A stretch of 64,000 nt of DNA from an uncultured Chloroflexia bacterium (GCA_963809385.1 CAWEJL010000013.1:14043-78042); one strand, 5' to 3'. Positions 9,797-61,782 are shown, counted from the stretch's first letter. Translations and numbers: made by a program. Notes: generated from the sequence alone by a model not told the origin.

Positions 9797-9827
9797 CTAT
9801 ATCGCTCGCTTCTCTACACAGGCCGCC

Positions 9828-9978
9828 GGGCGAATGAATTCGCGCCTCAAGGCCTGACGGCCACAACGTCCGCCTACGCGGACGCGGGGACGGCGGACAC
9901 GGACGCGGGGACGGCGGACACGGACCCGCGCAGGCGGGTCTCGTGGCGGGACGCCTGGAGGCGCGGTTTCAACCGCCC
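9828..9978. repeat. REP/REPIN-like palindromic element, family A
   Basis: GGGCGAATGAATTCGCGCCTCAAGG...GAGGCGCGGTTTCAACCGCCC with internal hairpins and a 21-bp tandem duplication. Confidence 0.85.
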
Positions 9979-10014
9979 GGCGTTCCCGCCGCTGCCCGCC
10001 CGCTCTCCGCGCGC

Positions 10015-11055
10015 CTACCCCTTGCGCTGCCGCACCTTCTCGGTCAGCTGCGGCACGATCACGTTCAGGTCGCCGACCACGCCAAGGTCGCAGAAGCCGA
10101 AGATCGGCGCGTCTTTGTCCTTGTTGATGGCGACGATCAGCGCCGAGGAGGCCATGCCCGCCTTGTGCTGCACCGCGCCGGAGATGCCCACCGCGATGTA
10201 GACGGTTGGCTTGACCGTCTTGCCGGTCTGGCCGACCTGATGCGGGTAGGGAATCCAGCCAGCGTCCACCGCCGCGCGCGAGGCGCCTACGCCCGCGCCC
10301 AGCGCCGTCGCCAGCGCCTCGATCTGCTCGAAGCCCTGCGGCCCGCCCAGGCCGCGCCCGCCGGAGACGATGACCTGCGCCTCCTCCAGCTTGGCGCGCA
10401 TCGCCGCTGGCATCCAGACGTCGTGGCCGTCGGGGGCCTTGCCCAGATGCCCGGCCTCCGCCGCGCCTTCTGTGCCAAACGGGCCGGAGAGCTTCGCGCC
10501 GTTGGCGGGCGCGCTGGCGGCGGCCACGCTGACCACCTCCGCCGCGCCGCCGACGCGGTTGGTCGGGAAGGCGTTGGCGCGCGCGCCCACCAGCTTCGTC
10601 CCGCCGCCGGTGAACGCCATCTTGACCGACTGCGCGCCGCCAAAGGCCGGCACGGTCATCACCAGCTCGCCGCCCTCGACGGCCACCTCGGCGACGTTGT
10701 ACTCCATGCCCAGGCCCAGCCGCGCCGCCAGCCGCGCCGCCACGTCGCGCCCGTAGTTCGTCACGCCGAACAGGATCGCCGCTGGCTGATGCTGCTCGAC
10801 CAGCGCCGCCAGGGTGTCCACATGCGGCTGGATCAGATACTCATCGTAGACCGCGCCATCGGCGGCGTAGACCGTCTTCACGCCGCACGAGCCAAGCTCA
10901 GCGGCGGCGGCGGCCGTGTTGGTCCCCATCGCCACGGCGGCGGAGGAGCCGCCCAGCTGGCCCGCCAGCTCCGCGGCCTTGCTCGCCAGCTGCAGCGAGA
11001 TGCCCGTCATCTTTCCGCCAGCGATTTCCGCCAGCGCCCACACATCGTTCGCCAT
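10015..11055 (-). CDS. etfA: electron transfer flavoprotein alpha subunit
   Basis: [50 protein letters not shown]. Confidence 0.95.
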
Positions 11056-11056
11056 C

Positions 11057-11833
11057 TTAGAGTACCTTCTGCTCGACGAGGAAGGCGACGATGCGATCAG
11101 CCGCCCCATCATTGCCGTTGTACATCTCACCCTTGCGCTGGGTCGCCACGGGCGACGCGCCCACGGCCCGCTCGCGCGCGCCCGCCGCGCCCGCCTGCCC
11201 GGCCTCCAGGCCGATGTCCGCCAGCGAGAAGGTGTCAATCGGCTTCTTCTTCGACTGCATGATGCCCTTCATCGAAGGGTAGCGCGGCTCGTTGATGCTC
11301 TTGACCACGCTCACCAGCGCCGGGGTCGCGGCCTCGGCCACCTGATAGCCAACCTCCGCCGCCCGCTCGATGCGCGCCTTGCCGTCCACGATGTCCAGCT
11401 TGGAGGCGAACGAGAGCAGCGGCAGCCCCAGGAACTCGGCCACCGCCGCCGGGACCACGCCGCCGTAGGCGTCCGCCGCCGCGCTGCCAAAGAGCGCCAG
11501 ATCGAAGCCCAGCTTCTTGAGCGCGGCGGCCAGCGCGCGCGCCGTGCCGATGGCGTCGGAGCCCGCCAGCGCCGCGTCACTCACCAGGACGCCACGGTCC
11601 GCGCCCATCGCCAGCGCCTTGCGGATCGTCTCCGTCGCGGTGGCTGGCCCCATGCACAGCGCGATCACCTCGCCGCCGTGCTTCTCCTGCTGGCGCAGTC
11701 CCTCTTCGATAGCGTACTCATCAAAGGGGTTGATGACCGCGTCCTCTTTGCGCCGCTCCAGCCGCATATCAGCGGTGAAGCGCTTCTCCGCCGTCGTTGA
11801 CGGCGTCTCCTTCATGCAAACCACAATATTCAC
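11057..11833 (-). CDS. etfB: electron transfer flavoprotein beta subunit
   Basis: [36 protein letters not shown]. Confidence 0.95.
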
Positions 11834-12249
11834 GAGGCTCGTTCCTCTCCAGATCAACCGGCGATAGCCGCATCGCTACGGCGGATAGCCTACCATACCA
11901 CGCCGGATGCGGGCGTGGGTGGGGTTTCCGGCGGGCGGTCGGCGAGCTGTGTTCCGGGAAACGGCTGGGAGGCGTCAACAGCCGCCAGCCCAGGAGATAC
12001 AGGTGTTAGCTGGACGCGCCAGCTACACCTCACTGGCAGGCCAGCGCCATCGCGCGAAGAGGGAAGACGGCGCCGCGTCGCAACCAGGCGCCAGAATAGC
12101 TCGCGTCAGTATGCGCCTACACTCGTGGGCGCGCGGAGGCGAACGCCGTTGTCCCCTCGGTTCAGGCTACGCCCATTGTAGCCGTGCGCTCCAAGGGGTG
12201 TCAACGGTGTAGCTGGCTGACATGCGGGGCGCGCTCCGTCACACTTGAG

Positions 12250-13042: not shown

Positions 13043-13906
13043 GTGGAGGAGCCGCTGACGGGGCGCGTGCAGGGCGTCGCGCTCCGCCCAACTGGCGCGT
13101 CCGCGTGTGAGGTTGGCGTGCTGGTGCTGGCAGGCTCCAGCGGGCGGCTGGACCTCGCGCGGGCGCGGCTGCTCGCGGCGCATGGGGCGCTCGCGGTCGC
13201 GCTGCGCTGGTTCGGCGGGCCGGGACAGCCGCCGGGTATCTGCGAGATTCCACTCGAAACCTTCACCGAAGCGATTGACTGGCTGGCGGAGCAGGGCGCG
13301 CGCCGCATCGGGATCGTGGGGCTCTCGAGAGGCGCGGAGGCGGCGCTGCTGGTCGCCTGCCACGACGCGCGCGTGGATACGGTGATCGCGCTTGCGCCCT
13401 CATCAGTCTGCTGGGCGTATGTGGGGCCGAGCGCCGACGGACGCGCGCACACCTATCGCTCGTCCTGGACATGGCGCGGCGCCCCGGCGCCATTCGTCCC
13501 CTATGACGAGTCATGGGAGCCAGCCGGAGGGGACGGGCTGGTGAGCTATCGCGCGCTCTACGAGGCGAGCCTGCGCGCCTTCCCCGACGCCGCGCGGGCG
13601 GCGGCGATCCCGGTGGAGCGGGCGCGCGCCAGCCTGCTGCTCGTCGCGGGCGGCGCCGACGCGCTCTGGCCGTCCGCGCTGTTCGCCGCTGAGATCGCCG
13701 CGCGCCGGAGAACGGCCGGGCGCCAGGTCGAAGTCATCACCCATCCCGACGCTGGCCACCGCCCCATCCTCCCCAGCGAACCCGCGCCGACCCCATCCAC
13801 CTCCTACGCCCACGGCGGGAGCGCGGCGGCGGACGCGGCCCTTGGCGCGCTGGCCTGGCCGCGCATACAGGCGCTCCTGCATGGCGGGGAGCGGGAATCA
13901 CCGTGA
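13043..13906 (+). CDS. acyl-CoA thioesterase / BAAT C-terminal-type alpha/beta hydrolase
   Basis: GLSRGAE nucleophile elbow, IPVER, G.D..WPS, PDAGH. Confidence 0.85.
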   Translation: MEEPLTGRVQGVALRPTGASACEVGVLVLAGSSGRLDLARARLLAAHGALAVALRWFGGPGQPPGICEIPLETFTEAIDWLAEQGARRIGIVGLSRGAEAALLVACHDARVDTVIALAPSSVCWAYVGPSADGRAHTYRSSWTWRGAPAPFVPYDESWEPAGGDGLVSYRALYEASLRAFPDAARAAAIPVERARASLLLVAGGADALWPSALFAAEIAARRRTAGRQVEVITHPDAGHRPILPSEPAPTPSTSYAHGGSAAADAALGALAWPRIQALLHGGERESP

Positions 13907-20016: not shown

Positions 20017-21192
20017 TCACACCGGCGTGAAGGTGACGGGGAGCGTTTTGACGCCGAAGACGATCGAGCTTTCCATCCAGCGCAGCGGCGCGTCGGGGAC
20101 GCGGCGAATATCACGGAAGCGCGCGGTGAGCGCCTCCAGGGCGAGGCGCGCTTCCAGGCGGGCGAGGGGCGCGCCGAGGCAGAAGTGGATGCCGTAGCCA
20201 AAGGCGAGATGCCGGTTGGGCGTGCGCTCGATGTCGAAGACGTGGGCGTTGGGGAACAGGGTTTCGTCGCGGTTGGCCGAGCCAATCCAGGCGATGACGG
20301 GCTGGCCGGGGCGCGTGACAACGCCGCCCAGGTCCGTCCCGCCAGTGGCGGCGCGGAACATGGACTGGACGGGCGAGCGGTAGCGCAAGACTTCCTCGAT
20401 GGCGTCAGGGATGCGGTCGGGCTGGGCGCGCAGGCGCTCGTACACGTCGGGCTGCTCGTCGAAGCAGAGGATGGCGTTGCCGAGCAGGTTGGTGGTGGTC
20501 TCGTTGCCCGCGACGAGCAGCAGGACGCAGAAGCCGATCAGCTCGATCTCGCTGAGCCGCTGGCCGTCAATCTCGGCGCTGATAAGATGGCTGATGAGGT
20601 CGTCGCGCGGCTCGGCGCGGCGCTCGACGATCAGGCGCCCGAAGTACATCGCCATCTCGCGCTGGGCGTCCATAAAGGAGAGCTGACCAGCGGCGGGCGC
20701 CGCGCCAGGGGAAACGATAGCGTCGGACCAGCGCCTGAACTGGGCGCGCTCGGAGGTCGGGATGCCGAGCATTTCAGCGATCACGATCACCGGCAGCGGG
20801 TAAGCGAGGTCTTCGATGAAGTCCATGCGACCAGCGGCGGCGACCTGATCGAGCAGCTCGCCAGTGATCGCGGTGATGCGGGGAGCGAGCTGGGCGACGG
20901 CGCGCGGGGTGAAAGCCTGGGTGATGAGGTTGCGCAGCTGGCGGTGGCGCGGGGGATCGGAGCTGATGAGGCTCGCGCCCAGCGCTGACGAGCCATCGCG
21001 GCCACCACGGTCGGAGGAGAAGGCCTCGAAGTCGGAGAGGACGCGCTGCACGTCGTCATAGCCGAAGACCGAGAGCGCGCCGGAGTGGGGGTCAACCATT
21101 GCGGGCGATTCGCGCCGCATCCGCTCATACCAGGGAAAAGGATCGTGGGCTTCCCCGCGAGGATCGCCCGCGCGCCGCGACGGTGTCTCCAT
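20017..21192 (-). CDS. cytochrome P450
   Basis: AGNETT, EEVLRY (ExxR), HLAFGYGIHFCLGA. Confidence 0.95.
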   Translation of the reverse strand: METPSRRAGDPRGEAHDPFPWYERMRRESPAMVDPHSGALSVFGYDDVQRVLSDFEAFSSDRGGRDGSSALGASLISSDPPRHRQLRNLITQAFTPRAVAQLAPRITAITGELLDQVAAAGRMDFIEDLAYPLPVIVIAEMLGIPTSERAQFRRWSDAIVSPGAAPAAGQLSFMDAQREMAMYFGRLIVERRAEPRDDLISHLISAEIDGQRLSEIELIGFCVLLLVAGNETTTNLLGNAILCFDEQPDVYERLRAQPDRIPDAIEEVLRYRSPVQSMFRAATGGTDLGGVVTRPGQPVIAWIGSANRDETLFPNAHVFDIERTPNRHLAFGYGIHFCLGAPLARLEARLALEALTARFRDIRRVPDAPLRWMESSIVFGVKTLPVTFTPV

Positions 21193-21440
21193 GTTCACGC
21201 TCGCTCCTTGGCTGTGGGGTGGAGGAGGAAAGACGCCGCGCGCCTGCGCGACTGGCCTCGCTGTATAGTGTAGCGTGTGGAGGCGGCTTGCGCGAGGACG
21301 CCGAGAGGCGCCGCCAGGCTGAGTACGTACGGAAAGCCACTAGGCCAGTCCACACAGGGCTTGACCGTGGTCCAATGTCCATTTGAGTGTACTATCGACG
21401 CCGATATGTTATGACTGGGCGCCAGAGGGTAACCACGAGT

Positions 21441-23210: not shown

Positions 23211-24241
23211 TCACGCCGCCCCCGCGCCCGCGCTCCCCGCCAGCCCCGCGAGCGCCTGCCGCGTGTAGGCGCGGATGATGCGCTTGCGCAGCGCGATCGT
23301 GCCGGAGGTGTTGTCCATCGGGTGCGCGGCGCGCAGGGCCACCTCCGCCGCCGCCTCGATCAGGTCGGGTGTCCAGCGCTGGCCGGTCAGCAGCGCCTCG
23401 GCCTCCGGCAGCGGCAGCGGGGCCGTCGCCACGCCTTGCAGCGCCAGCCGCGCCGCCACGCAGACATCGCCCTCGAAGCGCGCCGCCGCCGCCACGCTGG
23501 CGATCGGGAAGTCGAACGCGCCGCGCACGCGGTACTTCTCGTAGGTCGAGCGCCACTCGCCCGCCAGCGGCGGCAGCGTGATGTCGGTCAACACCTCGCC
23601 CTCGCGCAACCGCACCGGGTGGATGCCGTCATCATCGTAGAGCGCGGCCACCGGAACGTCGCGCGCGCCCTCGCGCGCGAGGCCACCCGCGCCGTCGCGC
23701 CGAAGGCGATCAGCACGGGCGCGGTATCGCACGACGAGACGGCGTAGCAGCCCGTCCCGTTCGGCGCCACGCGGCAGATGTCGCTGCCCTTCTTCAGGCA
23801 GAACTCGCGCGCGCCCCGCCAGAACTCCGACTGGTTATAGTAGTTGCAGCGCGTGTCCAGGCAGATGTTGCCGCCAATCGTCCCCATCTGCCGCAACTGT
23901 GGCGTCGAGACAGACGCCGCCGCCAGCGCCAGCGCCGGGTAACGCTGCTGTATCACCGCCGACGCCGCGACCTCGCTCAGCCGCACGCCCGCGCCAAGCC
24001 GCAGCCCGCGCTCCGGGTCGTAGCTGATCCCGCGCAGCGCGGCCACGCCGCGCAGGCCGACGACCACCTTCGGCGTGAAGACCTTGTGCTTCATGTTCGG
24101 CAGCACATCGGTCCCGCCGGCCATCAGCATCGCCCGCGCCTCGGGGTCTTTGTCCACCGCCGGGGCGAACGCGCCCAGCCACTCCAGCGCCTCCTCCACG
24201 GAGCGCGCGGCGCGATACTCGAACTTCGGCAAGCGCATCAT
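23211..24241 (-). CDS. hcrB: 4-hydroxybenzoyl-CoA reductase beta-subunit-like FAD/[4Fe-4S] protein (frameshift near 23680)
   Basis: AGGTD, GTIGGN; Cys insertion CLDTRCNYYNQS..WR...CLK....C.V......CYA; KYRVRG.FDFP. Confidence 0.75.
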
Positions 24242-24269
24242 GACGCCATCACCTCCCCGCACAGGGTCG

Positions 24270-24414
24270 CCTCATCCGGCCTCCGGCCACCTTCTCCCTG
24301 CGGGGAGAAGGCCCATAGCCAGCATTCCTCGCGGAGCAAACCCAGTCCGCCCTTTACGAGACACGCGCGCCTCGCGGCCCCTCTCCCCGCAGGGAGAGGG
24401 GGTAGGGGGTGAGG
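24270..24414. repeat. REP-like family C (CCCCTCTCC..GGAGAGGGG..GGGGGTGAGG), two copies
   Basis: same motif at 27041-27078 and 38193-38227. Confidence 0.7.
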
Positions 24415-24419
24415 CCCCC

Positions 24420-26816
24420 TCACGCCCGCTCCGCCTTCCGCTTCGCCCCCGGAGCCGCGACCTCGCCCCGGCCTTTCAAGGCCTCGTCCGTGCCCCGGCC
24501 TTTCAAGGCCGGGACTGCCGCCGGGGCCGGGGGGTGAGGTCGCGCCGCCCGCGCCGCCTCACGCAGCGCGCGCTGGATCTTGTCCGGCGTGATCGGCGTG
24601 GAGTCCACGCGGGCGCGGATGGCGTCGTAGACGGCGTTGGCGATGGCGGGGATGATCGGGTTCAGCGGCCCCTCGCCCGCCTCCTTCGCGCCGTATGGCC
24701 CCTCGCGGTCGAGCGTCTCCACCGTCAGCGCCGTGATCTCCGGCGTGTCGTAGATCGTCGGCAGCTTGTACTCCAGTAGCGACGGTATCTTATGCAGCCC
24801 CTTGCGGAAGACCTGCTCCTCCAGCACCGCCTCGCCGAAGCCCATGTAGGCGCTGCCCTCGACCTGCCCCTCGACGAGCACCGGGTTCAGCGCCCGCCCG
24901 CAGTCGTGCGCCACCCACAGCCGCTCGACCTTCAGGTCGTAGGTCTCCGGGTCCACCGTCACCTCGGCCACGCAGGCGGTATAGCTGTAGGCGGGCGAGA
25001 CGCCGACGCCCGACCCCTTGAACTTGCCGCCCAGCTTCGGCGGCGTGTAGCTGCCCACCGCGCTCAGCGTGCCGTGCGCCGCTTCGGCCTTCTGCGCCGC
25101 GTCCACGAAGCTGATGCGCTTCTCCGGCTCGCTGGCGTCGTATATCCAGCCCTCGCCCGCCTCCAGGCGCTCCGACGGAACCTCCAGCGCGGCGCTGGCG
25201 GCCTCGAAGAGCAGCGCCCGCAGCTTGCGCGCCCCCTCGCGCGCGGCGTTGCCCGCCATGAACGTCACGCGCGAGGAGTAGCTGCCCAGGTCCACCGGCG
25301 TCAGGTCGGTGTCCCCGGTGTAGACGCGGATGTCGAGCGGGTCAATGCCTAGCTCCTCGGCCACCACCTGCGCCAGCATCGTATCCGAGCCCTGGCCGAT
25401 GTCCGACGAGCCACAGAGCGCCGCGACGCCGCCGCCGCGGTCAATGGTGACGATCACGCCGGAGTGCGGCATGTCGTTCCAGTAGATCGCCTTGCCCGCG
25501 CCAGTCACATACGAGCTAATCGCGACGCCCAGCCCGCGCCCCTCCGGCATGCGCTCGCGGCGCTCGTCCCATCCCGACGCCTCCACCACCTTGTCCACGC
25601 ACTCCTTCAGCCCGCAGGTCGTCACCCGCAGCCCGTTGACCGTCTCGCTGTACGGCTCGATGGCGATACGCTTGCGGTACTCCGCCGGGTCAAGGCCAAG
25701 CTGCTCGGCGATGCGGTCAAGCTGGCACTCGAAGGCGTAGCGCGGCTGGGTCGAGCCATGCCCGCGCTTAGGACCGCAGGCCGGTTTGTTGGTGTAGAGC
25801 CGCATGCCGTCGAACTTGTAGGCTGGGATTTTGTAGGTCACCGTCAGCAGCGCGCCGGTGTAGTAGACCGTCGCCAGGCCGTAGCTGGCGTAGGCGCCAC
25901 CATCCAGGAAGGTCTGGAGATGCACGGCGGTAATGCTGCCGTCAGACTTCACTCCCGTCTTGAGGATCATCTTCACCGGATGCCGCCCGCGATGGCAGTA
26001 GAAGACCTCCTCGCGGCTGAGGGTGAACTTGATGGGCCGCCCGTGGCGCAGCGCGAACAGACACGCCGCGAAGTCGTGCGCGAACGGCTCGCACTTGCCG
26101 CCGAACCCGCCGCCCACCGGCGGCACGATGATCCGCAGGCGGCTGCGCGGGATGCCCAGCACCTTGGCGACCTCGCGATGGATGTAATGCGGCGTCTGCG
26201 TCGAGGTCCACAGGGTGACTTTGCCGTCGGCGTGGCAGTCGGCGACGCAGGCGTGCTCCTCCATCGGCGCGTGCGTCGTCCCCTCGAAGAAGTACGCGTC
26301 CTCGCGGACGAGGTCAGCCGCCGCGAAGCCGTCCTCCACCGGGCCAAACTCCAGGTGGACTTCCTTCATGACGTTGCCGCGATCGCTCTCCGCGTGAATC
26401 TGGTTCTCGGGGTGGGCCAGCGCCTCCTCGACCGAGTAAAGCGCCGGCAGCGGCTCGTACTCGACCTCGATCAGGTCCAGCGCCTCCTCCGCCGTCTCCT
26501 CGTCCACCGCGCAGACCGCCGCCACTGGCTCGCCGACGTAGCGCACGCGGTCCATCGCGAACGGCGTCTCGTCCTGCGTCGTCGGCATGATGCCGTAGGT
26601 ATGTGGCAGGTCGGCGCCAGTGATGACATCCAGCACGCCGGGGTAGGCCCGCGCCCGCGACACATCGAGCCGCAACAAGCGCGCGTGCGGGTGCGGGCTG
26701 CGCAGGATGCGCCCATACGCCATACGCGGCAGCGTCAGGTCGTCGGCGTATTTCGCCGCCCCTGTCACTTTCGTATAGCTGTCTATCTTGGTGAGCGACT
26801 TGCCTATCACCCGCAT
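24420..26816 (-). CDS. hcrA: 4-hydroxybenzoyl-CoA reductase alpha-subunit-like molybdopterin protein
   Basis: GGGFGGK, RGHG, DIGQGS, LGSYSSRVT, GQVEG, GAKEAGEG. Confidence 0.78.
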   Translation of the reverse strand: MRVIGKSLTKIDSYTKVTGAAKYADDLTLPRMAYGRILRSPHPHARLLRLDVSRARAYPGVLDVITGADLPHTYGIMPTTQDETPFAMDRVRYVGEPVAAVCAVDEETAEEALDLIEVEYEPLPALYSVEEALAHPENQIHAESDRGNVMKEVHLEFGPVEDGFAAADLVREDAYFFEGTTHAPMEEHACVADCHADGKVTLWTSTQTPHYIHREVAKVLGIPRSRLRIIVPPVGGGFGGKCEPFAHDFAACLFALRHGRPIKFTLSREEVFYCHRGRHPVKMILKTGVKSDGSITAVHLQTFLDGGAYASYGLATVYYTGALLTVTYKIPAYKFDGMRLYTNKPACGPKRGHGSTQPRYAFECQLDRIAEQLGLDPAEYRKRIAIEPYSETVNGLRVTTCGLKECVDKVVEASGWDERRERMPEGRGLGVAISSYVTGAGKAIYWNDMPHSGVIVTIDRGGGVAALCGSSDIGQGSDTMLAQVVAEELGIDPLDIRVYTGDTDLTPVDLGSYSSRVTFMAGNAAREGARKLRALLFEAASAALEVPSERLEAGEGWIYDASEPEKRISFVDAAQKAEAAHGTLSAVGSYTPPKLGGKFKGSGVGVSPAYSYTACVAEVTVDPETYDLKVERLWVAHDCGRALNPVLVEGQVEGSAYMGFGEAVLEEQVFRKGLHKIPSLLEYKLPTIYDTPEITALTVETLDREGPYGAKEAGEGPLNPIIPAIANAVYDAIRARVDSTPITPDKIQRALREAARAARPHPPAPAAVPALKGRGTDEALKGRGEVAAPGAKRKAERA

Positions 26817-26875
26817 CGCGCACGCTCCGTTTCTTTACCATGACCCGGCGAGATTGTTCGATGGGACGGCGCCCA

Positions 26876-27020
26876 GCGAATGAATTCGCGCCTGTGGGGC
26901 CTCGCGGCCACAACGTCCGCCTGCGCGGACGCGGATTTCGAACCCGCGCTGACGCGGAACCCGGACCCGCGCAGGCGGGTCTCGCGGCGGAACGCCCCCG
27001 AGGCGCGAATTCATTCGCCC
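26876..27020. repeat. REP-like element, family A
   Basis: GCGAATGAATTCGCGCCT...AGGCGCGAATTCATTCGC terminal inverted repeats. Confidence 0.85.
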
Positions 27021-27036
27021 GCCGCTTAGCCCGCGC

Positions 27037-27546
<510 letters not shown>

Positions 27547-27547
27547 C

Positions 27548-28864
27548 TCAGCCCCCATATTTCCGGCGGTCATCCAGCCGGCGCGCCTTCAGCTCGAAGC
27601 GTGGCAGCGACCCCGCCGGGGCTACTCGCACCGGCGCGCGCAGGTTCAGCGCGCCGCGCAGCGCCCGCTCCACCTCCGGCGCTAGCTCCTCTGGGCATTC
27701 CGCCTCGACCTCGACCTCATCCAGCGCGCCCACCCGCGTCACGATGATGCGGAACTCTTCCACCTGCGGGAACTGGCGCAGCACCGCCTCGATGCTCGAC
27801 GGGAAGACGTTGACGCCGCGCACGACGACCATATCATCCACCCGCCCCAGCACGCCGCCGGGCAGCGTCAGGAACGTCCGCCCGCAGGGGCAGCTCGCCG
27901 GGCCGCGTATCACACGGTCGCCGGTGCGGTAGCGCAGCGCCGGATAGCCCCAGCGCCCCAGGTTCGTCAGCACCAGCTCGCCCTGCTCGCCCTCCGCAAC
28001 TGGCGTACCCGTCACCGGGTCCAAAATCTCGGCGATGAACTCGGCCTCGTTGACATGCACGGCGTCCTGATTGAGGCAGGTGAAGCCATAGGCTCCCATC
28101 TCGGTCATGCCGAGATGGTCGTAGGTGCGCGCCCCCCAGGCCTCCTCGATGCGCGCTCGCGTGCTGGGGATCGAAGCCCCCGGCTCACCGGCGTGAATCG
28201 TCACGCGCACCGCCGACGAAGCGATATCCAGCCCCTCCTCGCGCGCTACCTCCGCCAGCCGCAGCGCGTAGGTTGGCGTGCAGACCAGCACGGTCGCCTC
28301 CGTCGCCAGGATCGTGCGCAGCCGCTGCGAGGTGGACTGCCCGCCGCCCGGCACGACCAGCGCGCCAATCCGCTTGGCCCCCTCATACGCCGACCAGAAG
28401 CCGATGAACGGGCCGAACGAGAACGCCAGAAAGACGGTATCCGCGCGATCCACGCCCGCCGCGTGATACACCGACTCCCAGCACTCCGCCCACCAGTCCC
28501 AGCTTTCCGCCGTGTCCAAAATCGTCAGCGGATGGCCCGTCGTGCCTGATGTCTGGTGCAGCCGCACATACTCGCGCGGCGAAAAGGTCAGGTTCGCGCC
28601 GTAGGGCGGGCAGGCGCGCTGGTCCTCCACCAACTCCCGCTTATTCATGAACGGCAGGCCGGCGAGCGCCTCCAGGCTGGTCAGACGCTCGACATCGAAG
28701 CCGTCCAGCTTGTCGCGCAGGAAACGGTTGCTCCGCAGCGCGCGCGTCAGACCGGCGCGCAGCTTGATCAGCTGGAAGCGCGTCAATGTCGCACGGCCGG
28801 CCATCTGTAGCCACGGAAGCGGGCGATCCCCAGTGATCGCGGTCGTGGTGGGCGCCGGATTCAT
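27548..28864 (-). CDS. phenylacetate-CoA ligase (PaaK) family aryl-CoA ligase
   Basis: TSGTTG, CTPTY, GEPG, YRTGD, GRVDDM...RGVNVFPS, SLPR.E.KA.R. Confidence 0.88.
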   Translation of the reverse strand: MNPAPTTTAITGDRPLPWLQMAGRATLTRFQLIKLRAGLTRALRSNRFLRDKLDGFDVERLTSLEALAGLPFMNKRELVEDQRACPPYGANLTFSPREYVRLHQTSGTTGHPLTILDTAESWDWWAECWESVYHAAGVDRADTVFLAFSFGPFIGFWSAYEGAKRIGALVVPGGGQSTSQRLRTILATEATVLVCTPTYALRLAEVAREEGLDIASSAVRVTIHAGEPGASIPSTRARIEEAWGARTYDHLGMTEMGAYGFTCLNQDAVHVNEAEFIAEILDPVTGTPVAEGEQGELVLTNLGRWGYPALRYRTGDRVIRGPASCPCGRTFLTLPGGVLGRVDDMVVVRGVNVFPSSIEAVLRQFPQVEEFRIIVTRVGALDEVEVEAECPEELAPEVERALRGALNLRAPVRVAPAGSLPRFELKARRLDDRRKYGG

Positions 28865-28976
28865 CGCGCGCGGCCCTCCCTCTCTCAATCCGAAAGGAAC
28901 AGATCCATATCAGGAAACATGCGCGTGGCCAGATCATACCCCACGCACACCTCACCCCAGCGGCGAGACGGGGCCC

Positions 28977-29150
28977 GGCGAATGAATTCGCGCCTCCAAG
29001 CGGCTCGCGCCGCCACAAGACCCGCCTGCGCGGCTCCGAATCCGCGTCCACGCAGGCGGACGTAGCGGGCCAAGAGGCGAGTGGAGCGAAGCCCCCATGC
29101 GCGGGTTCGGGGTTCCCGTATGGGGCCCTTCAGGCGCGAATTCATTCGCC
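28977..29150. repeat. REP-like element, family A
   Basis: terminal inverted repeats as in other copies. Confidence 0.85.
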
Positions 29151-29175
29151 AGCTACTCGTTCGTCGCCAGAGTCT

Positions 29176-30723
29176 CTACGGCGCCACGGCGTCCAGCCGC
29201 TTGCCGCGTGTGGCGATGCCGAACTGGGCGATGACCGCCGCGATCACCAGGAACGCGCCGATCACCAGGAAGGCATAGAGCGCGCCATTCGGCTCCGTCC
29301 CCAGCGCTGGCAGCACCGACCCGGTGATGACGATCAGGCCGACGCCGCCGCCGAGATGCCCGATGCCATCCACGATGCCGAAGCCCGTCGTGCGCGCCCG
29401 CGTTGGGAAGTTCTCCGTGGACCAGGCGTAGGTGATTGGCACCCAGATGTTGAAGCCGAAGAACAGGATGATCGAGCCAATGAACGCCAGGATCACCGTC
29501 CCGTTGACTGTCGCCGCGCTGGGCTTGCCCGCCACGGCGATCAGAATACCGCCGAGCAGCGTGAGAACCGCGCCAATCGGCAGCCAGTACTTGCGCTCCA
29601 GCCGCTCGCCGAAGGAGAAGGCGAACACGCCGCACAGGACGAACCCAATCGTGCCCATCGCCGCGATAACACCCGCTTCAGGCGGCGCGTAGCCCAAGCC
29701 GTTGAGGACCACCGTCAGCCCGGCGGCGATCGAGTAGACCGTCATGTAGGCGAAGAACCACATGACGAGCAGCAACACCACGCGCCCCAGGTAGACCGGA
29801 TGGCTGAAGATCGCGGCAAGGCCCTCGCCGCCCGTCCCCGATTGCACGGTGATGGGCTCTTCGTCCGCCGCGTCCGCCGCGTCCGCCACTGGCGCGCCGC
29901 CCTTGCTGGAGGCGAACCGCTCCATGCGGCTCACGACCGCGTCCGCTTCCGCCACGCGCCCGCGCGAGACCAGCCAGCGCGGCGACTCAGGCAACTGAAA
30001 GCGCAGCAGGATGCCGAGCAGCGCCAGAACCGCGCCGATGACGTACATGATGCGCCAGCCACTACCCTCGAAGACGCCAGTCTTGCTGACCGTCACCTGC
30101 GCGAAGTTCAGCCCCAGCGGGAACGGCGCCGGCGGGGTGGTCAGGATCAGCCCCAGCCAGATGGCGATGAACGCGCCTAGCCCCGACATGATGAAGATCA
30201 GGGAAGTGTACTTGGCGCGGCTGCGGCGCGGCGCGACCTCATTGATGTACGTGTTGACGATCGCCAGGTCGGCGCCGATGCCGATGCCGGTGATCGTGCG
30301 CGCAATGGTGAAACTGGTGAAGTCGTTCGTCAACGCCGTGTAGAGCGACCCCAACCCAGTGATGAGCAGCGTCACCATCAGCATCTCGCGCCGTCCAAAG
30401 CGATCGGCCAGCGGGCTGAGCGCCAGCGCGCCGATGACATAGCCGATGAGGTTCCACAGCACCGGCAGGCCCAGCACGGCGGACGCCCCGACGAACCCGG
30501 CTGGCAGCGCAGTCAGCCCCGGCGGCGGCCCGGCCAGGCACTTGGTGACGATCTGCGTGCAGGTCTGGATGAACGAGACATTGATGTCGAAGATGTCGTA
30601 GAACGTGAACAGGAAGCCAGCGCCGATGACGAGGACAAATGAATAGGGAAGCGACCAGACCTGGATCCGGTCCTGTCGGGCGACTACCGCGCTCGGAGTG
30701 AGCGCTTTCGCATCCGCTGTCAT
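29176..30723 (-). CDS. MFS transporter, probably an aromatic acid or small-solute importer
   Basis: LADRFGRR, E.AP..SR, LPESPRWL, TENFPTRARTTG; GAAGGGA RBS before ATG 30723. Confidence 0.88.
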   Translation of the reverse strand: MTADAKALTPSAVVARQDRIQVWSLPYSFVLVIGAGFLFTFYDIFDINVSFIQTCTQIVTKCLAGPPPGLTALPAGFVGASAVLGLPVLWNLIGYVIGALALSPLADRFGRREMLMVTLLITGLGSLYTALTNDFTSFTIARTITGIGIGADLAIVNTYINEVAPRRSRAKYTSLIFIMSGLGAFIAIWLGLILTTPPAPFPLGLNFAQVTVSKTGVFEGSGWRIMYVIGAVLALLGILLRFQLPESPRWLVSRGRVAEADAVVSRMERFASSKGGAPVADAADAADEEPITVQSGTGGEGLAAIFSHPVYLGRVVLLLVMWFFAYMTVYSIAAGLTVVLNGLGYAPPEAGVIAAMGTIGFVLCGVFAFSFGERLERKYWLPIGAVLTLLGGILIAVAGKPSAATVNGTVILAFIGSIILFFGFNIWVPITYAWSTENFPTRARTTGFGIVDGIGHLGGGVGLIVITGSVLPALGTEPNGALYAFLVIGAFLVIAAVIAQFGIATRGKRLDAVAP

Positions 30724-31052
30724 AGAGCGTATTCCCTTCCGGAGTGGCCGTGGCGCGAGATCGTGACGGAGCCTGGCTGAGTGGGCGCGCGGCCCCCGCT
30801 CATGGCATGCGCCGCTGAGCGTGAGCGCCCTCGCGCGACTGGCCTGACTGGCGCGTCTCATCCACGAGCGGCCACCCCACATGACGCCTTGTCGCCGCAC
30901 ACCGATGTGCGGCGACAAGCGCGCCAGCGCAGAGCGTCTGGCCACGCGATCGCTGCTCCGTCCACCTCCTTATCTCCGCTTCGTGCGCGGCGTCATACCT
31001 GCTGTCCGTGGTTCTGTCCGTGGTTGCGTCTCTTGTCCAGCGCAACCGAAGT

Positions 31053-31118
31053 GTTCAGCATGCCGAACCATTCGTTCTTCAACAAGAACAGTGTGCATGA
31101 ATGCGCGCGATATGTCAA
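31053..31118 (-). promoter_or_regulatory. promoter and tandem operators of the catabolic operon
   Basis: minus-strand TTGACA-17-CACACT (31118-31090), then GTTC-N8-GAAC at 31074-31089 and 31053-31068. Confidence 0.7.
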
Positions 31119-31148
31119 GACGCGAGGCGCGCGGAGCGCGGAGCGAGC

Positions 31149-31283
31149 GGGCGAATGAATTCGCGCCTCAAGGCGGCCCCAGCCGCCACAAAACCCGCCT
31201 GCGCGGGTTCCCGTCTCGCCGAACGCGGGTCCGCGAAGGCGGACCTTGTGGCCGCAGGCCTTGAGGCGCGAATTCATTCGCCC
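31149..31283. repeat. REP-like element, family A
   Basis: long perfect terminal inverted repeat GGGCGAATGAATTCGCGCCTCAAGGC. Confidence 0.9.
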
Positions 31284-31363
31284 CGCCTACTCGCCCCGCC
31301 TGCTCGCCCCACCTGCTCGCCCGGCGGCGATGACACCCGCCTGCTCGGCCTCGGCGTGTCCAC

Positions 31364-31431
31364 TTGACAGCGCGCCAGCCCGCGCGCCACACTTGTTCGT
31401 ATGTCAGAACCCACCGTTCACGATACTGAAC
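31364..31431 (+). promoter_or_regulatory. iclR promoter and tandem operators
   Basis: TTGACA-18-CACACT (31364-31393), then GTTC-N8-GAAC at 31395-31410 and 31416-31431. Confidence 0.7.
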
Positions 31432-32195
31432 CCGCCGCGCCCGCGCCGATGGTCGAGCGCGCCTTCAAGCTGCTCGATCTGCTCGCCACCAGCGACGCGG
31501 GCTACAGCCTCTCCGAGCTGGCCCGCCTGCTGGGCATGAGCAAGGGCAGCGCGCACGGCCTGCTCAAGACGCTGGAGAGCGGTGGCGTGGTCGAGCAGGA
31601 CAGCGAGCGCCGCTACGCCCTCGGCCCGCGCATCTATAACCTCAGCCAGGCGTATATTCGCGGCAGCGGCCTGCGGCGCTTCGCCCTGCCCGCCATGCGC
31701 CGTCTCGCCGCGGACGCCGGACAGACCATCTTCCTTGGCCAGATCGAGCCCGACGGCGTGCGCATCATCGAGCGAGTGGAAGAGCCAGGCGAGCGCGGCG
31801 CCCTGCGCGTCTCCGCCCGGCGCGGCGACCGCGTCCACCTGCTCGCCGGAGCTATCGGGCGCGTCGTCCTGGCAAGCTGGCCACCCGCGCGCCGCGAGGA
31901 GTATCTGCGAACGCGGACCCTGCGCCACTTCACCGACCGCTCGATCACCGACCGCGACGCCTACCTCGCTGCGGTGGAGGAGACGGCCCGAACTGGTGTC
32001 GGCGTGGACCACGAGGAATATCTCACCGGTGTCAACGCCGTCGCCGCCGCGATTCACGGGCTGGACGGCCAGCCGGTCGCGCTGGTCTGGATCGTCGGCT
32101 TCAGCGCCTACTTCACCGACGAGGCGATGGCGCGCGCGGGCGAGGCGCTGCGCACGGAGACACGCGAGATTTCGCGGGCGCTGGGAGCGGAATAG
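31401..32195 (+). CDS. IclR family transcriptional regulator
   Basis: VERAF.LLD.L, HTH LSELAR.LG.SK..AH..L.TL, Y.LGP, A.GR..LA, G...D.EE...GV.AVAA. Confidence 0.93.
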   Translation: MSEPTVHDTEPAAPAPMVERAFKLLDLLATSDAGYSLSELARLLGMSKGSAHGLLKTLESGGVVEQDSERRYALGPRIYNLSQAYIRGSGLRRFALPAMRRLAADAGQTIFLGQIEPDGVRIIERVEEPGERGALRVSARRGDRVHLLAGAIGRVVLASWPPARREEYLRTRTLRHFTDRSITDRDAYLAAVEETARTGVGVDHEEYLTGVNAVAAAIHGLDGQPVALVWIVGFSAYFTDEAMARAGEALRTETREISRALGAE

Positions 32196-36450: not shown

Positions 36451-37775
36451 CAACTCCCCACAGCTAAAGCCGGGGGATTCCTGCTTCATCGGGGCGCGCC
36501 GGATTGGGCATGGCCCGCCCCGGTCTTACCGCCTCTCCACAGGCGTGCACCGTGAGCCCCACGGCAAGGATGTTCTTCGCGGCGTTGATGTCGCGGTCAT
36601 GCCGGACGCCGCACGCCGGACACGTCCACTGGCGCACGTCCAGGGATAGGGCGTCGAGCACATGCCCACAGGCATGACAGCGCTTGGAACTGGGATACCA
36701 GCGGTCAATCTTGACCAGCGTGCGCCCGTACCACGTCGCCTTGTACTCCAGTTGGCGCACCAGCTCGCCCCAACCGACATCGCTGATCGCCTTCGCCAGG
36801 GTGTGATTGCGGACCAGGTTCTTGACCGCCAGCGACTCCACGCACACCGTTTGGTTTTCACGAATGAGGCGTGTCGTCAGCTTATGCAGGCCGTCGCGGC
36901 GCTGGTCCGCAATCCGGGCGTGTTCCCGCGCCACCTTCAGGCGCGCTTTCTCGCGGTTCTTGGACCCCTTCTGTTTGCGGGCGAGGCTGCGCTGCGCATG
37001 CTTGAGGCGGCGCTCACTGCGCTGAAGATGGCGCGGGTTGGCGATTTTCTCGCCCGTGCTGAGGACCGCCACGTCTTTCAGCCCGACATCCACCCCCACC
37101 AACGCATTGACGACCGGCAGCGCCGCCACCTCTTCCTCGACCAGGAAGGAGACGAAATAGCGTCCCGCCGTGTCTTTGCTGACGGTGACTGTGGTGGGCG
37201 TGCCGGTGAAGGAGCGCGACCAGTGGATGTCCAGCGGCGCGTCCATCTTCGCCAGTGTCAGCGTGTGTGTCGCGGAGTCCCAGCGAAACGCGCTGCTGGC
37301 GTAGGTCGCCGCTTGCCGTCCATGCTTCTTGTGGAAGCGGGGGTACTTGGCGCGGCCCTCGAAGAAGTTGCGGAACGCCTTGTCCAGGTGACGCAACGCC
37401 TGTTGCAGCGGCACGCTCGACACCTCGTTGAGCCACGCCGTCTCCGGCTGCTGTTTGAGGATCGTCAACGCCGCCGACGCCTCGTGATAGTCGAGGCGTT
37501 CCTGGCGCTCATAGTAGGCGTCAGTGCGCAAGCGCAGCGCCCAGTTGTAGACGAAACGCGCGCTGCCGAACGTCCGCGCCAGCACGGTGTCTTGTGCGGG
37601 CGACGGGTAGAACCGGTAGCGGTACGCGCGTTTCTGTTGCATGCTTACAAGTATAGCGCAGAAGTTGTAAGTAAACCATGGGCGGTAGTTCTCTTTGTAC
37701 GGTTGGCTGCGCCTGCGGGCGCGCGGCGTTTCATCTCCATGCCTCAAGGCAGGGGTCTTCACGCCGCATATCTCG
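36447..37775 (-). mobile_element. IS200/IS605-family (IS1341-like, tnpB-only) element
   Basis: left end follows target TTAT, with a subterminal hairpin preceded by AAGA; right end GAATCCCCCGGCTTTAGCTGTGGGGAGTTG-TCAA; no tnpA. Confidence 0.85.
36464..37642 (-). CDS. tnpB: RNA-guided endonuclease TnpB
   Basis: AYRYRFYP HTH, RuvC-I GVDVG, RuvC-II VESL, zinc finger CHACG..CPACG, RuvC-III DRDINAA.N. Confidence 0.95.
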   Translation of the reverse strand: MQQKRAYRYRFYPSPAQDTVLARTFGSARFVYNWALRLRTDAYYERQERLDYHEASAALTILKQQPETAWLNEVSSVPLQQALRHLDKAFRNFFEGRAKYPRFHKKHGRQAATYASSAFRWDSATHTLTLAKMDAPLDIHWSRSFTGTPTTVTVSKDTAGRYFVSFLVEEEVAALPVVNALVGVDVGLKDVAVLSTGEKIANPRHLQRSERRLKHAQRSLARKQKGSKNREKARLKVAREHARIADQRRDGLHKLTTRLIRENQTVCVESLAVKNLVRNHTLAKAISDVGWGELVRQLEYKATWYGRTLVKIDRWYPSSKRCHACGHVLDALSLDVRQWTCPACGVRHDRDINAAKNILAVGLTVHACGEAVRPGRAMPNPARPDEAGIPRL

Positions 37776-37793
37776 ATAAAGCGCGTATTGGGG

Positions 37794-37952
37794 TCACGAT
37801 ACCGGTTCGCGTGACCACGCCCAACGCATCCACAGCCAACCGCCGATGACCACAACGAGCCACAAAAGCGCAAACAGAATCAGGGGAATCCAGCACGATC
37901 CGCCACGGCGCGCGCCCGGCTCAGGAGCAGGTGAACGCCCCTGGGTACCCAT
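37794..37952 (-). CDS. small single-pass membrane protein (52 aa)
   Basis: GGAAGGA RBS; one hydrophobic helix CWIPLILFALLWLVVVIGGWLW. Confidence 0.5.
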   Translation of the reverse strand: MGTQGRSPAPEPGARRGGSCWIPLILFALLWLVVVIGGWLWMRWAWSREPVS

Positions 37953-60479: not shown

Positions 60480-61782
60480 CTAGAGCAGCTTCAGCCGCTC
60501 GAAGGCCGTATCAATCCACGGCAGGTAGGCGGTTGGGTCGGCGATCGCGTCCAGCTCCTCCGGCGTCAGCTTCGCCGCCACGTCGGGGTCGGCCTTGAGC
60601 ATCGCCAGCAGGCCCTGGCCCTCGTCCTCGTCTCGCCAGACCTTCTGCGCGTTGCGCTGCACCAGCTTGTACGCCGCCTGGCGGTCCATCCCCTTGTCCA
60701 CCAGCGCCAGCAGGACGCGCGAGGAGTAGATCAGCCCGCGCGTCATGTTCAGGTTGGCGGCCATCTTCGCCGTATTGACCTCCAGCCCGCTCATGATCTC
60801 GTTGAACAGCCACAGCATGTAGTGCAGCAGTCCGCACGAATCGGGCAGGATGATGCGCTCGGTCGAGGAGTGGCTGATGTCGCGCTCATGCCACAGCGCG
60901 ACGTTCTCCATCGCCGTCAGCGCGTAGCCCCGGAGCACCCGCGCCAGCCCGCAGACGCGCTCCGCCTTCTCCGGGTTGCGCTTGTGCGGCATCGCCGACG
61001 AGCCCTGCTGGTTCGCGCCGAACGGCTCGAACGCCTCGCTCAGCTCCGTCCGCTGCAAGTGGCGAATCTCCTGCGCCATCATCTCCAGCGAGGAGCCAAC
61101 CAGCGCCAGCGCCGTCACGAAGTGCGCGTGCCGGTCGCGCTGGATGATCTGCGTCGAGACCGCCTCCACCCGTAGCCCCAGCTCGCTGGCAGACATACTC
61201 CTCGATCTTCGGCGGAATCGTCGCGTGCGTGCCGACCGCGCCGGAGATCGCCCCGACCGCGATGTCGTCTATCGCCGCGTCCAGCCGCGTACGGCTGCGG
61301 CGCAGCTCGTCCACCCACATCGCCAGCTTGAAGCCGAAGGTCGTCGGCTCGGCGTGGATGCCGTGCGTGCGCCCAACCATCAGCGTCATTCGGTGCTCCA
61401 CCGCCAGCCGCGAGACGGTCTCCGTCAGCGCGTCGAGCTGCTCGCGCAGCAGCGTCCCCGCCTGGAGCAACTGGAGGCTGAGGGCGGTATCGAGCATGTC
61501 GGAGGAGGTCATGCCCAGGTGCAGGAAGCGGCCCTCCGGCCCCAGCTTCTCCTGCACCGAGCGCAGAAACGAGATCACATCGTGGTGCGTCTCGCGCTCG
61601 ATCTCGTGCGCGCGCGCGCTGTCGTAGGTCGCCTCGCGAATCTTGTCCATGTCTTCCGGCGAGATGACGCCCTCGCGCGCCCAGCCCTCGCAGACCAGCA
61701 GCTCGACCTGCAGCCAGTTATCGAACTTGTTTTCCTCGGACCAGACACGGGCCATCTCAGGCCGCGTATAGCGCTCGATCAT
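60480..61782 (-). CDS. purB: adenylosuccinate lyase (frameshift near 61190)
   Basis: MIERY.RPEM, HDV, H.GMTSSD, GRTHGIHAEP, SSAMPHKRNP, ERDISHSS.ER. Confidence 0.95.

Follow-up and report, generated by a model that had tools for sequence, protein, structure and literature searches.

A conserved gene module pairing a sister of 4-hydroxybenzoyl-CoA reductase with a divergent PaaK-type ligase in an uncultured Chloroflexia bacterium

The stretch of DNA considered here, called the window, comprises 64,000 nucleotides (nt) from an uncultured Chloroflexia bacterium (GCA_963809385.1 CAWEJL010000013.1:14043-78042), and its positions 23211-32195 hold a module of six genes built around a molybdoenzyme related to 4-hydroxybenzoyl-CoA reductase (HCR; CoA, coenzyme A). 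Five of the genes form a run on the minus strand, and the sixth, for an IclR-family transcriptional regulator (31401-32195, plus strand; domains HTH_IclR and IclR_C), diverges from it. The run opens with a major facilitator superfamily (MFS) transporter of the aromatic-acid/H+ symporter type (29176-30945; Sugar_tr and MFS_1), whose real start probably lies near 30723 (MTADAKAL...); its matches in related loci begin at query residues 2-79. It is followed by a divergent acyl/aryl-CoA ligase of the PaaK superfamily (27548-28888; AMP-binding and AMP-binding_C_2) and by the three subunits of the enzyme: gamma, with two [2Fe-2S] domains (27037-27573; Fer2 and Fer2_2; its 3′ end enters a repeat), the HcrA-like molybdopterin subunit alpha (24420-26816; Ald_Xan_dh_C, MoCoBD_1 and MoCoBD_2; its last ~40 residues enter a repeat), and the flavin adenine dinucleotide (FAD) subunit beta (23211-24262). 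The span of beta covers two open reading frames (ORFs) on the minus strand, namely an N-terminal piece that carries a four-Cys [4Fe-4S] loop (23588-24262; FAD_binding_5) and a C-terminal piece in another frame (23211-23732; CO_deh_flav_C). An earlier interpretation drawn from the DNA alone, referred to below as the sequence-only reading, had proposed just this run of importer, ligase, gamma, alpha and beta with a divergent IclR gene, and both the coordinates and the Pfam and NCBIfam domains bear it out, with all six genes in their proposed places.

By its scores, the enzyme is by far closest to HCR among characterised enzymes. Among NCBIfam families, alpha reaches 924.1 bits on TIGR03194 (HcrA), against 562 for XdhA, at most 376 for CoxL-type families and 285 for PaoC; among solved structures it matches 1rm6_A with 651 bits over residues 5-755, while the next structure gives 298 bits and that of PaoC 194. 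The intact beta subunits of the related loci L006 and L010 obtain 286.2 and 277.6 bits on TIGR03195, with the next family at 155-159. In a word-indexed search at least 8,000 homologues, mostly metagenomic, were found at E<=1e-50, and 6,271 proteins at E<=1e-30 came from searching 1.84 billion cluster representatives exhaustively. When the top 60 representatives were scanned, only P0254 (1301.7 bits, 45% identical to the window alpha) exceeded the HcrA cut-off, which none of 41 genomes of the order exceeded. As a side observation, eight of the cluster representatives (P0242, P0246, P0247, P0253, P0264, P0271, P0281 and P0381; 891-951 amino acids, with the alpha match beginning at residue ~165-190) look like gamma-alpha fusions.

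The same placement was obtained from a quick IQ-TREE analysis of 75 alpha rows (LG+G4, with SH-aLRT as the only support and no bootstrap), in which P0254 stood in for canonical HcrA, neither Thauera HcrA nor 2-furoyl-CoA dehydrogenase being among the rows. The window and five Ktedonobacterales or Chloroflexota loci fall inside a 28-row clade (SH-aLRT 100), and this clade, together with P0254 and the neighbours of the latter, makes up a 38-row clade (SH-aLRT 95), with E. coli XdhA and PaoC outside. Alpha thus groups with the representative of canonical HcrA, no clustering with Pao, Cox or Xdh proteins is seen, and the view that the subunits are HCR-like held. The enzyme is nonetheless an uncharacterised sister of canonical HCR, outside the HCR equivalog group.

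The Cys-rich stretch of beta, CLDTRCNYYNQSEFWRGAREFCLKKGSDICRVAPNGTGCYA, is present as the sequence-only reading had described, and it aligns, position by position, with the part of Thauera HcrB that carries the [4Fe-4S] loop (1rm6_B, 25-183), all loop Cys being conserved; by alignment, E. coli XdhB has no such loop. The further statement that the loop characterises HCR is not supported as it stands, for the loop is not exclusive to HCR: E. coli PaoB and the FAD subunit of the Methylobacillus aldehyde oxidase match the same region, the PaoB loop being another form of [4Fe-4S] loop. The motifs KRGHGS and GAKEAGEG of alpha were likewise found, the latter from residue 709, and apart from a change beside the active-site Arg the active-site segments are very similar to those of 1rm6_A. 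In the column of the family GxGE motif, which we take to be the catalytic Glu of the xanthine-oxidase family, both the window (GAKEAGEGP) and P0254 have Glu. A scan of genome contigs yielded 79 loci, 25 of Ktedonobacterales type (L005-L028 and L035; alpha 81-93% identical) and 54 more distant. Glu occurs in 25 loci, that is, in all Ktedonobacterales-type loci reaching the motif and in L029, L030, L032 and L033; Gln occurs in 50, from Methylomirabilota/Rokubacteria, Acidobacteriota, Dormibacterota and others; the remaining four are truncated. Gln is also found in G040, another genome of the order, assembled as a single contig. The window enzyme is therefore the more canonical form within a mostly Gln clade. 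The gene context of the other Glu-type loci L029, L032 and L033 (AI-2E transporter, YbjQ, methyltransferases) is uninformative; in L032 a crotonase, an aldehyde dehydrogenase and a thiolase lie 7 kb away.

As for the ligase, its PaaK-type nature was rightly recognised from the DNA at the level of the superfamily (AMP-binding plus AMP-binding_C_2), though it is a divergent member and no PaaK equivalog: it reaches 246.8 bits on NF041878 (cut-off 700) and 220.3 on TIGR02155 (cut-off 646.3), compared with 559 bits for a true PaaK-like neighbour in L045. On TIGR02262, the benzoate-CoA ligase family, it scores 29.1 bits (cut-off 375.25). Its best solved relatives are Bacteroides PaaK (4r1l, 227 bits), 2-hydroxyisobutyryl-CoA synthetase (6hdw, 207) and Burkholderia PaaK (2y27, 198); weaker matches are BagE/FevW (104 bits) and AjiA1 and 6siw (~90-97 bits), which we assume to be related to enzymes activating substituted benzoates. 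It is the sole PaaK-family match in its own genome. The substrate of so divergent a ligase cannot be deduced from similarity. The MFS protein has TIGR00895 as the best of 33 families (143.3 bits, below the cut-off of 418.55) and matches PcaK with 91.3 bits; the best NCBIfam matches of the IclR protein, BhcR (147.6 bits) and PcaR/PcaU/PobR (112.6 bits), are both far below their cut-offs.

The module recurs well beyond the window, and the records closest to it are titled Ktedonobacterales or Chloroflexota. The ligase gene lies directly upstream of gamma in 18 of the 19 Ktedonobacterales-type loci with upstream sequence (the exception being L008), an IclR homologue stands beside the ligase in 16 loci of this type, and an MFS gene is found in 13. 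Among the 41 genomes, 18 have an alpha gene at E<=1e-200, and in every one of these a ligase orthologue accompanies it (>=63% identity), in 15 cases on the contig that carries alpha; in G010 and G012 alpha and ligase are both on contig fragments. G040 has the order gamma-alpha-beta-ligase, and a longer hcrCAB-like operon ends with a member of the same ligase subfamily (49-63% identity over individual matched segments) in 11 of the 54 distant loci. The ligase-hcr linkage is thus conserved, and by these comparisons the pairing holds through three gene orders and several phyla, which favours a functional link. The six-gene module around an HCR sister and a PaaK-type ligase is more than an artefact of annotation. 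What flanks the module differs among seven Ktedonobacterales loci (P450s, further AMP-ligases, a single crotonase, peptidases, transporters), and no conserved ring-reducing or ring-opening genes were found there. In some Ktedonobacterales loci an unrelated gene (S9 peptidase, patatin, PNPOx-like) is inserted between gamma and alpha (L016:7915-9999, L011:9038-9922, L010:9532-9960).

In 12 of the 54 distant loci (L079:9471-20565, and L041, L049, L050, L060, L062, L067, L071, L076, L078, L082 and L083) the hcrCAB-like genes are followed by a helix-turn-helix-cupin regulator, BoxC, BoxB, RidA, a gene of the benzoate-CoA ligase family and, often, a PaaK-like ligase. In L079 the copies exceed the NCBIfam cut-offs (BoxC 932 bits, BoxB 851, benzoate-CoA-ligase-family protein 688), and 9 of the 11 distant loci that hold the ligase also have BoxC and BoxB, 78-92% identical to those of L079. 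The records concerned are titled Rokubacteria, Methylomirabilota, Verrucomicrobiia, Limnocylindria and Nitrosotalea. It can be seen that these relatives keep both a TIGR02262 ligase and a ligase of the window type. BoxB and BoxC act on benzoyl-CoA, and because they sit in the same operons, the sister-clade enzymes may be argued to make benzoyl-CoA. A PF01144 CoA-transferase that recurs upstream in Dormibacterota and Rokubacteria loci would again point to CoA esters.

For the window's own genome (G000, a soil Chloroflexota genome, 87% complete) the fate of the product has to be sought elsewhere than in the module, so that the description "self-contained" given in the sequence-only reading no longer fits. 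Its advice to look for box, paa and bcr genes had a mixed outcome: box genes are absent, paa genes are represented by weak matches only, and an unlinked bcr-type cluster is present. That is to say, the box pathway was rejected for this genome and its order, as no BoxB match was found in G000 and BoxC is matched there at crotonase level only (<=70 bits), with no true BoxC. The class II BamB-type reductase was rejected as well, with no AFOR_N match in the five genomes searched (G000, G040, G029, G025 and G022). A canonical paa cluster fared no better: no paaABCDE equivalogs were found in G000, and its PaaA/PaaC-like matches, on another contig and split, have at most 64 bits (cut-off 280). In all five genomes searched, weak PaaA/PaaC-like diiron proteins (100-112 bits; cut-off 280) adjoin an enoyl-CoA hydratase and an acyl-CoA dehydrogenase (G040:C1:337219-339663, L089; G000:C3:5774-8046, L088, where the gene is split), and it is possible that they are an alternative sink for the aryl-CoA.

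The bcr-type cluster lies on contig C5 (G000:C5:663376-670410; L087:7377-14411) as a tight minus-strand group of seven genes, unlinked to the module and flanked by two-component regulators. Its best NCBIfam matches are BcrD/BzdQ, BcrA, BcrB, BcrC, Dch, Had and BadI/Oah, all below the equivalog cut-offs (BcrB 243 bits, cut-off 487; BcrC 276, cut-off 421; 6-hydroxycyclohex-1-ene-1-carbonyl-CoA dehydrogenase 245; BadI/Oah 205 and 194). The B and C subunits match MbdO (355 bits) and MbdN (325 bits) of 3-methylbenzoyl-CoA reductase, as against 97-146 bits for BzdO/N and 2-hydroxyisocaproyl-CoA dehydratase. Two catalytic and two activase-type subunits are accompanied by dch, had and oah look-alikes. 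No ferredoxin was found beside the cluster, the downstream ORF of 91 amino acids having no Cys motifs. A BcrC-like gene occurs in 8 of the 41 genomes. Within the own genus (13 genomes, 62-91% complete), six have module and reductase, one has the module only (G011), one the reductase only (G004), and five have neither; since module and reductase are both present in four further assemblies of the genus, their joint occurrence does not come from faulty binning of G000. In addition, G000 has two COX1 (heme-copper oxidase) genes and three POR_N matches that indicate 2-oxoacid:ferredoxin oxidoreductases, which would fit a facultative organism able to make reduced ferredoxin. The sequence-only reading had placed the host in a Chloroflexota lineage known mainly from aerobes. 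The lineage is supported by the record titles, and the oxidases agree with respiration of oxygen; a purely aerobic host does not agree with a class I, ATP-dependent aryl-CoA reductase.

Gene content, family placement, the conserved linkage and the co-occurrence are thus observed; from them we infer the substrate, the direction of the reaction, its electron donor and the tie to the cluster on C5. With moderate confidence, it is proposed that the module imports a phenolic acid, activates it with CoA and removes its para-hydroxyl group reductively, giving benzoyl-CoA. The module would be controlled by the IclR protein and serve an aromatic acid with a para-hydroxyl group, 4-hydroxybenzoate or a relative derived from lignin being the simplest candidates. 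In the first step the acid would be imported by the MFS symporter, and in the second its CoA thioester would be formed by the PaaK-superfamily ligase. In the third, electrons from a low-potential donor would enter the gamma/alpha/beta enzyme via the extra [4Fe-4S] cluster, and loss of the para-hydroxyl would leave benzoyl-CoA or a ring-substituted analogue. Finally, the product would probably be dearomatised by the unlinked MbdO/N-type class I aryl-CoA reductase and then handled by the Dch-, Had- and Oah-like enzymes.

A number of points weigh against this proposal. Alpha stays below the equivalog cut-off of TIGR03194 (924.1 against 994.55 bits), the intact beta subunits of L006 and L010 stay below that of TIGR03195 (404.55), and gamma stays below that of TIGR03193 (182.2 against 257.8), where it is level with other small subunits of the xanthine dehydrogenase (XDH) family and is not diagnostic. 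In the tree the window clade branches beside the canonical HcrA group, as its sister, and not within it. RGHG is common to the window and P0254, and the residues next to the active-site Arg differ (GPKRGHG in the window, GAMRGHG in the canonical form). The loop does not fix the direction of the reaction, because the oxidative PaoB also carries one. The box-linked relatives are all Gln variants by alignment, so that what they suggest should be carried over to the Glu-type window only with caution. On the side of the product, BoxB is found in none of the 41 genomes and AFOR_N in none of the five searched. Outside the own genus 10 of the 11 module-holding genomes are without a BcrC-like gene (the exception is G031); G040, a single contig that is 94% complete by markers, has the module and no BcrC-like, BoxB or AFOR_N match. 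The genomes are incomplete metagenome-assembled genomes and are related, not independent, samples. Lastly, beta is broken in the available assembly.

The sequence-only reading had suggested a hydroxy-aromatic acid different from that of HCR; with all three subunits below the equivalog cut-offs and in a sister clade, the data speak neither for the same substrate nor for another. The alternative that survives best keeps the chemistry, reductive loss of a para substituent from an aroyl-CoA, and changes the substrate, which could be 4-aminobenzoyl-CoA (by reductive deamination), protocatechuyl-, vanilloyl- or syringoyl-CoA, or another substituted p-hydroxyaroyl-CoA, with the ligase supplying the specificity. 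We regard it as unlikely. It would agree with the sister clade and the sub-cut-off scores of all subunits, with the difference beside the active-site Arg, with a ligase outside the benzoate-CoA ligase family (29 bits on TIGR02262), and with its weak matches to BagE/FevW, AjiA1 and 6siw. The presence of two ligase types in the box-linked relatives suggests two different acids. P450 genes recur near the cluster (window 20017-21198; within a few kb also at L017:13522-15009 and L015:16673-18160); being only 28-30% identical between loci, they are probably bystanders. According to the accessible part of one report, HCR-annotated proteins of Desulfatiglans anilini are abundant only on aniline and 4-aminobenzoate (PMC7500099). 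Set against all this, the sequence points to no particular alternative, the MFS protein is closest to aromatic-acid/H+ symporters and matches PcaK, a 4-hydroxybenzoate transporter, and the active-site segments are otherwise very similar to those of 1rm6_A.

In an oxidative role the enzyme would work in the direction usual for its superfamily. In the manner of 2-furoyl-CoA dehydrogenase, it would add a hydroxyl group to an aroyl- or heteroaroyl-CoA, its host being a soil bacterium living aerobically, and the [4Fe-4S] cluster would pass electrons outward as in PaoABC. The two COX1 genes, the scarcity of BcrC-like genes among module holders outside the genus, the absence of BoxB from the order, the shared loop of PaoB and the retained catalytic Glu, which is presumably the general base of hydroxylases, are all in keeping with it. 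Nevertheless, among characterised enzymes the reductive HCR is by far the closest, within its own genus the module is found together with a class I aryl-CoA reductase cluster, the sister-clade enzymes share operons with BoxB and BoxC, two consumers of benzoyl-CoA, and next to the module there are no conserved genes for ring cleavage or for a hydrolase that would handle a hydroxylated heteroaromatic product. This alternative is therefore judged to be quite unlikely, and reductive removal of the para-hydroxyl is kept as the preferred reading.

The break in beta leads to the last alternative. Beta had been treated as one gene in the sequence-only reading, and it is in fact divided over two overlapping ORFs in different frames. 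Its N-terminal piece matches TIGR03195 profile positions 21-178 (178 bits) and its C-terminal piece positions 178-317 (92.9 bits). Alignment of the DNA with relatives places the break at 23668-23690, where, near 23674, a CG-rich tract of the window contains 2 bases more than in any of the five relatives. Contigs from runs X1 and X4, which come from relatives of the strain and not from the same strain, bridge 23674 without the 2 bases; the four public runs compared hold relatives only (88-99% alike), with a best share of words in any run of 0.26. The intact beta ORFs of L006 and L010 have 345 and 335 amino acids. In the same assembly, a comparison with 17 conserved E. coli proteins showed the rplE match (G000:C2:804284-804812) and the second of two tuf copies (G000:C4:555870-557067) each to be split over two frames, transketolase is spread over three consecutive ORFs (L088:504-2579), and the PaaA-like gene is split too. 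The division of rplE, tuf and transketolase suggests that indel errors are frequent in this assembly, and because of it the 2-base break in beta is probably such an error. By appearance, two further genes of the window are broken: a ResIII fragment of 260 amino acids (51136-51918) and a C-terminal piece of adenylosuccinate lyase of 238 amino acids (60480-61196).

If the insertion were real, this genome would have a beta pseudogene and an inactive reductase, irrespective of the family's function in other genomes. The 2 bases do stand in the assembly and are absent from every relative examined, a (CG)n-like tract makes replication slippage plausible, and repeat elements occupy three spacers of the operon; decay of the module is nonetheless very unlikely, given that the splitting of essential rplE, a tuf copy and transketolase corresponds to an indel error in roughly every ~10 kb of coding DNA, that the other five module genes give single full-length matches to relatives, and that both beta pieces are 91-94% identical to the closest relatives, L005 and L009, without further stops.

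The spacers just mentioned are filled by copies of one element of ~160-190 nt, whose inverted-repeat ends contain GCGAATGAATTCGC. The first copy lies between gamma and alpha (26865-27025; families D2, D4 and D6; inverted pair I4), the second between the MFS gene and the ligase (28960-29154; D2-D4, D6, I1, I8 and I9), and the third between the MFS and IclR genes (31140-31299; D2-D4, D6 and I6), where the I6 arms have 26 nt and are 100% complementary. A second palindromic repeat, CCCTCTCCCCGCAGGGAGAGGGG-like, is found at the 3′ ends of alpha and gamma (24290-24409 and 27042-27072), and both ORFs are lengthened there. Farther off, a TnpB/IS605 OrfB-type gene (36464-37873; HTH_OrfB_IS605, OrfB_IS605 and Cas12f1-like TNB) lies 4 kb from the module. 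At 8086-11857 and 13043-13906, electron-transfer flavoprotein alpha and beta genes adjoin a 4Fe-4S dicluster protein of 484 amino acids, followed by a BAAT-type acyl-CoA thioesterase; these genes lie 10-15 kb away and show no conservation together with the module.

If the module is functional as a route from phenolic acid to benzoyl-CoA, a class known from aerobic isolates would join the oxygen-free turnover of lignin-derived phenolic acids. A bolder idea, which we offer as a doubtful one, is that a Glu-retaining HCR sister and its dedicated PaaK-type ligase make up a portable two-step cassette, "phenolic acid to benzoyl-CoA", in oxygen-respiring soil Chloroflexota, feeding a class I aryl-CoA reductase in the own genus and a product fate not yet described in most other holders. 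In that case the Ktedonobacterales of the own genus would be facultative anaerobic degraders of aromatic compounds, the other holders, G040 included, would use a new dearomatising route or employ benzoyl-CoA as a biosynthetic starter, and an HCR-type reductase tolerating oxic or micro-oxic life would be implied. A large HCR sister lineage is common in soil metagenomes and is tied to a type of ligase not reported with HCR in the literature searched, which lay mostly outside subscription journals.

In that literature no description was found of the ligase-HCR pairing or of HCR or benzoyl-CoA reductase in Ktedonobacteria, no assay of any enzyme of the window clade, and no paper naming both HCR and furoyl-CoA dehydrogenase; Ktedonobacteria and benzoyl-CoA come together in incidental mentions only. 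Homologues of the window genes are labelled automatically by JGI as "4-hydroxybenzoyl-CoA reductase subunit alpha" and "phenylacetate-CoA ligase", and by NCBI as "molybdopterin cofactor-binding domain-containing protein" and "AMP-binding protein".

Several known systems can be compared with the module. PaaK (TIGR02155; 4R1L, 2Y27/2Y4N) has the same AMP-binding plus AMP-binding_C_2 architecture as the window ligase, which differs in scoring 220-247 bits where cut-offs of 646-700 apply, in being about as close to 2-hydroxyisobutyryl-CoA synthetase, and in its constant association with HCR-like genes. The class I reductase MbdONQP (9G87) resembles the C5 cluster in the MbdO/MbdN matches, the two activase-type subunits and the Dch/Had/Oah-like genes; the cluster differs in that it is below the Bcr cut-offs, is on another contig than the module and occurs in only 8 of 41 genomes. 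PaoABC oxidises free aldehydes. The FAD subunits of E. coli PaoABC (5G5G) and of the Methylobacillus aldehyde oxidase (5Y6Q) have a Cys-rich [4Fe-4S] insertion at the same place as the window beta, whereas PaoC falls outside the HCR-like clades, the window alpha has only 194 bits to it, and the gene order is paoA-B-C. In the part of the report consulted, 1RM6 served as the search model for PaoABC (PMC3958847).

Another reductive phenol dehydroxylase of the same superfamily is UcdCFO, the urolithin 9-dehydroxylase of Enterocloster, which the authors, in the accessible text, compare with 1RM6 (PMC11760930, PMC12771579). It is likened here by description, not by sequence, and its substrate is a free polyphenol, not a CoA ester; its FAD subunit is described in the same partial source as unlike HCR beta, the latter having an additional element (PMC11760930). 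As far as the available part of the report goes, Desulfatiglans anilini makes its HCR-annotated proteins only on aniline or 4-aminobenzoate, deamination of 4-aminobenzoyl-CoA is suggested by the authors, and a "phenylacetate-CoA ligase" is among the aniline-specific proteins (PMC7500099). For SAR324 bins, the portion seen lists both box genes and an HCR annotation, unlinked (PMC4782131).

Closer at hand are the Gln-variant HCR-like enzymes of soil Methylomirabilota/Rokubacteria, Acidobacteriota and Dormibacterota, which share with the window the 28-row clade, 57-64% alpha identity, the beta loop and, in 11 of 54 loci, the PaaK-like ligase subfamily. They differ from it in having Gln for Glu, and genes for BoxC, BoxB, RidA and a TIGR02262 ligase accompany many of them, a setting for which the BoxB and BoxC searches of the window genome gave no counterpart. 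The coexistence of Glu and Gln forms in one clade offers a natural experiment on the "catalytic" glutamate in the reductive direction.

HCR itself (HcrCAB of Thauera aromatica, PDB 1RM6/1SB3; HbaBCD of Rhodopseudomonas palustris; TIGR03193-03195) is the textbook case of a xanthine-oxidase-family enzyme run "backwards", and studies of it are limited, to our knowledge, to a few anaerobes. The module resembles it in the three subunits and their gamma-alpha-beta order, in the best match of alpha, in the Cys loop of beta, in RGHG and the catalytic Glu, and in the clustering of its genes with those of a CoA ligase, a regulator and an importer. It differs in that its three subunits are below the equivalog cut-offs and form a separate sister clade with GPKRGHG in place of GAMRGHG. 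Moreover, the usual partner of HCR is a ligase of the benzoate-CoA ligase family, whereas the window ligase belongs to the PaaK superfamily and its host is Ktedonobacterales-like, with aerobic oxidases.

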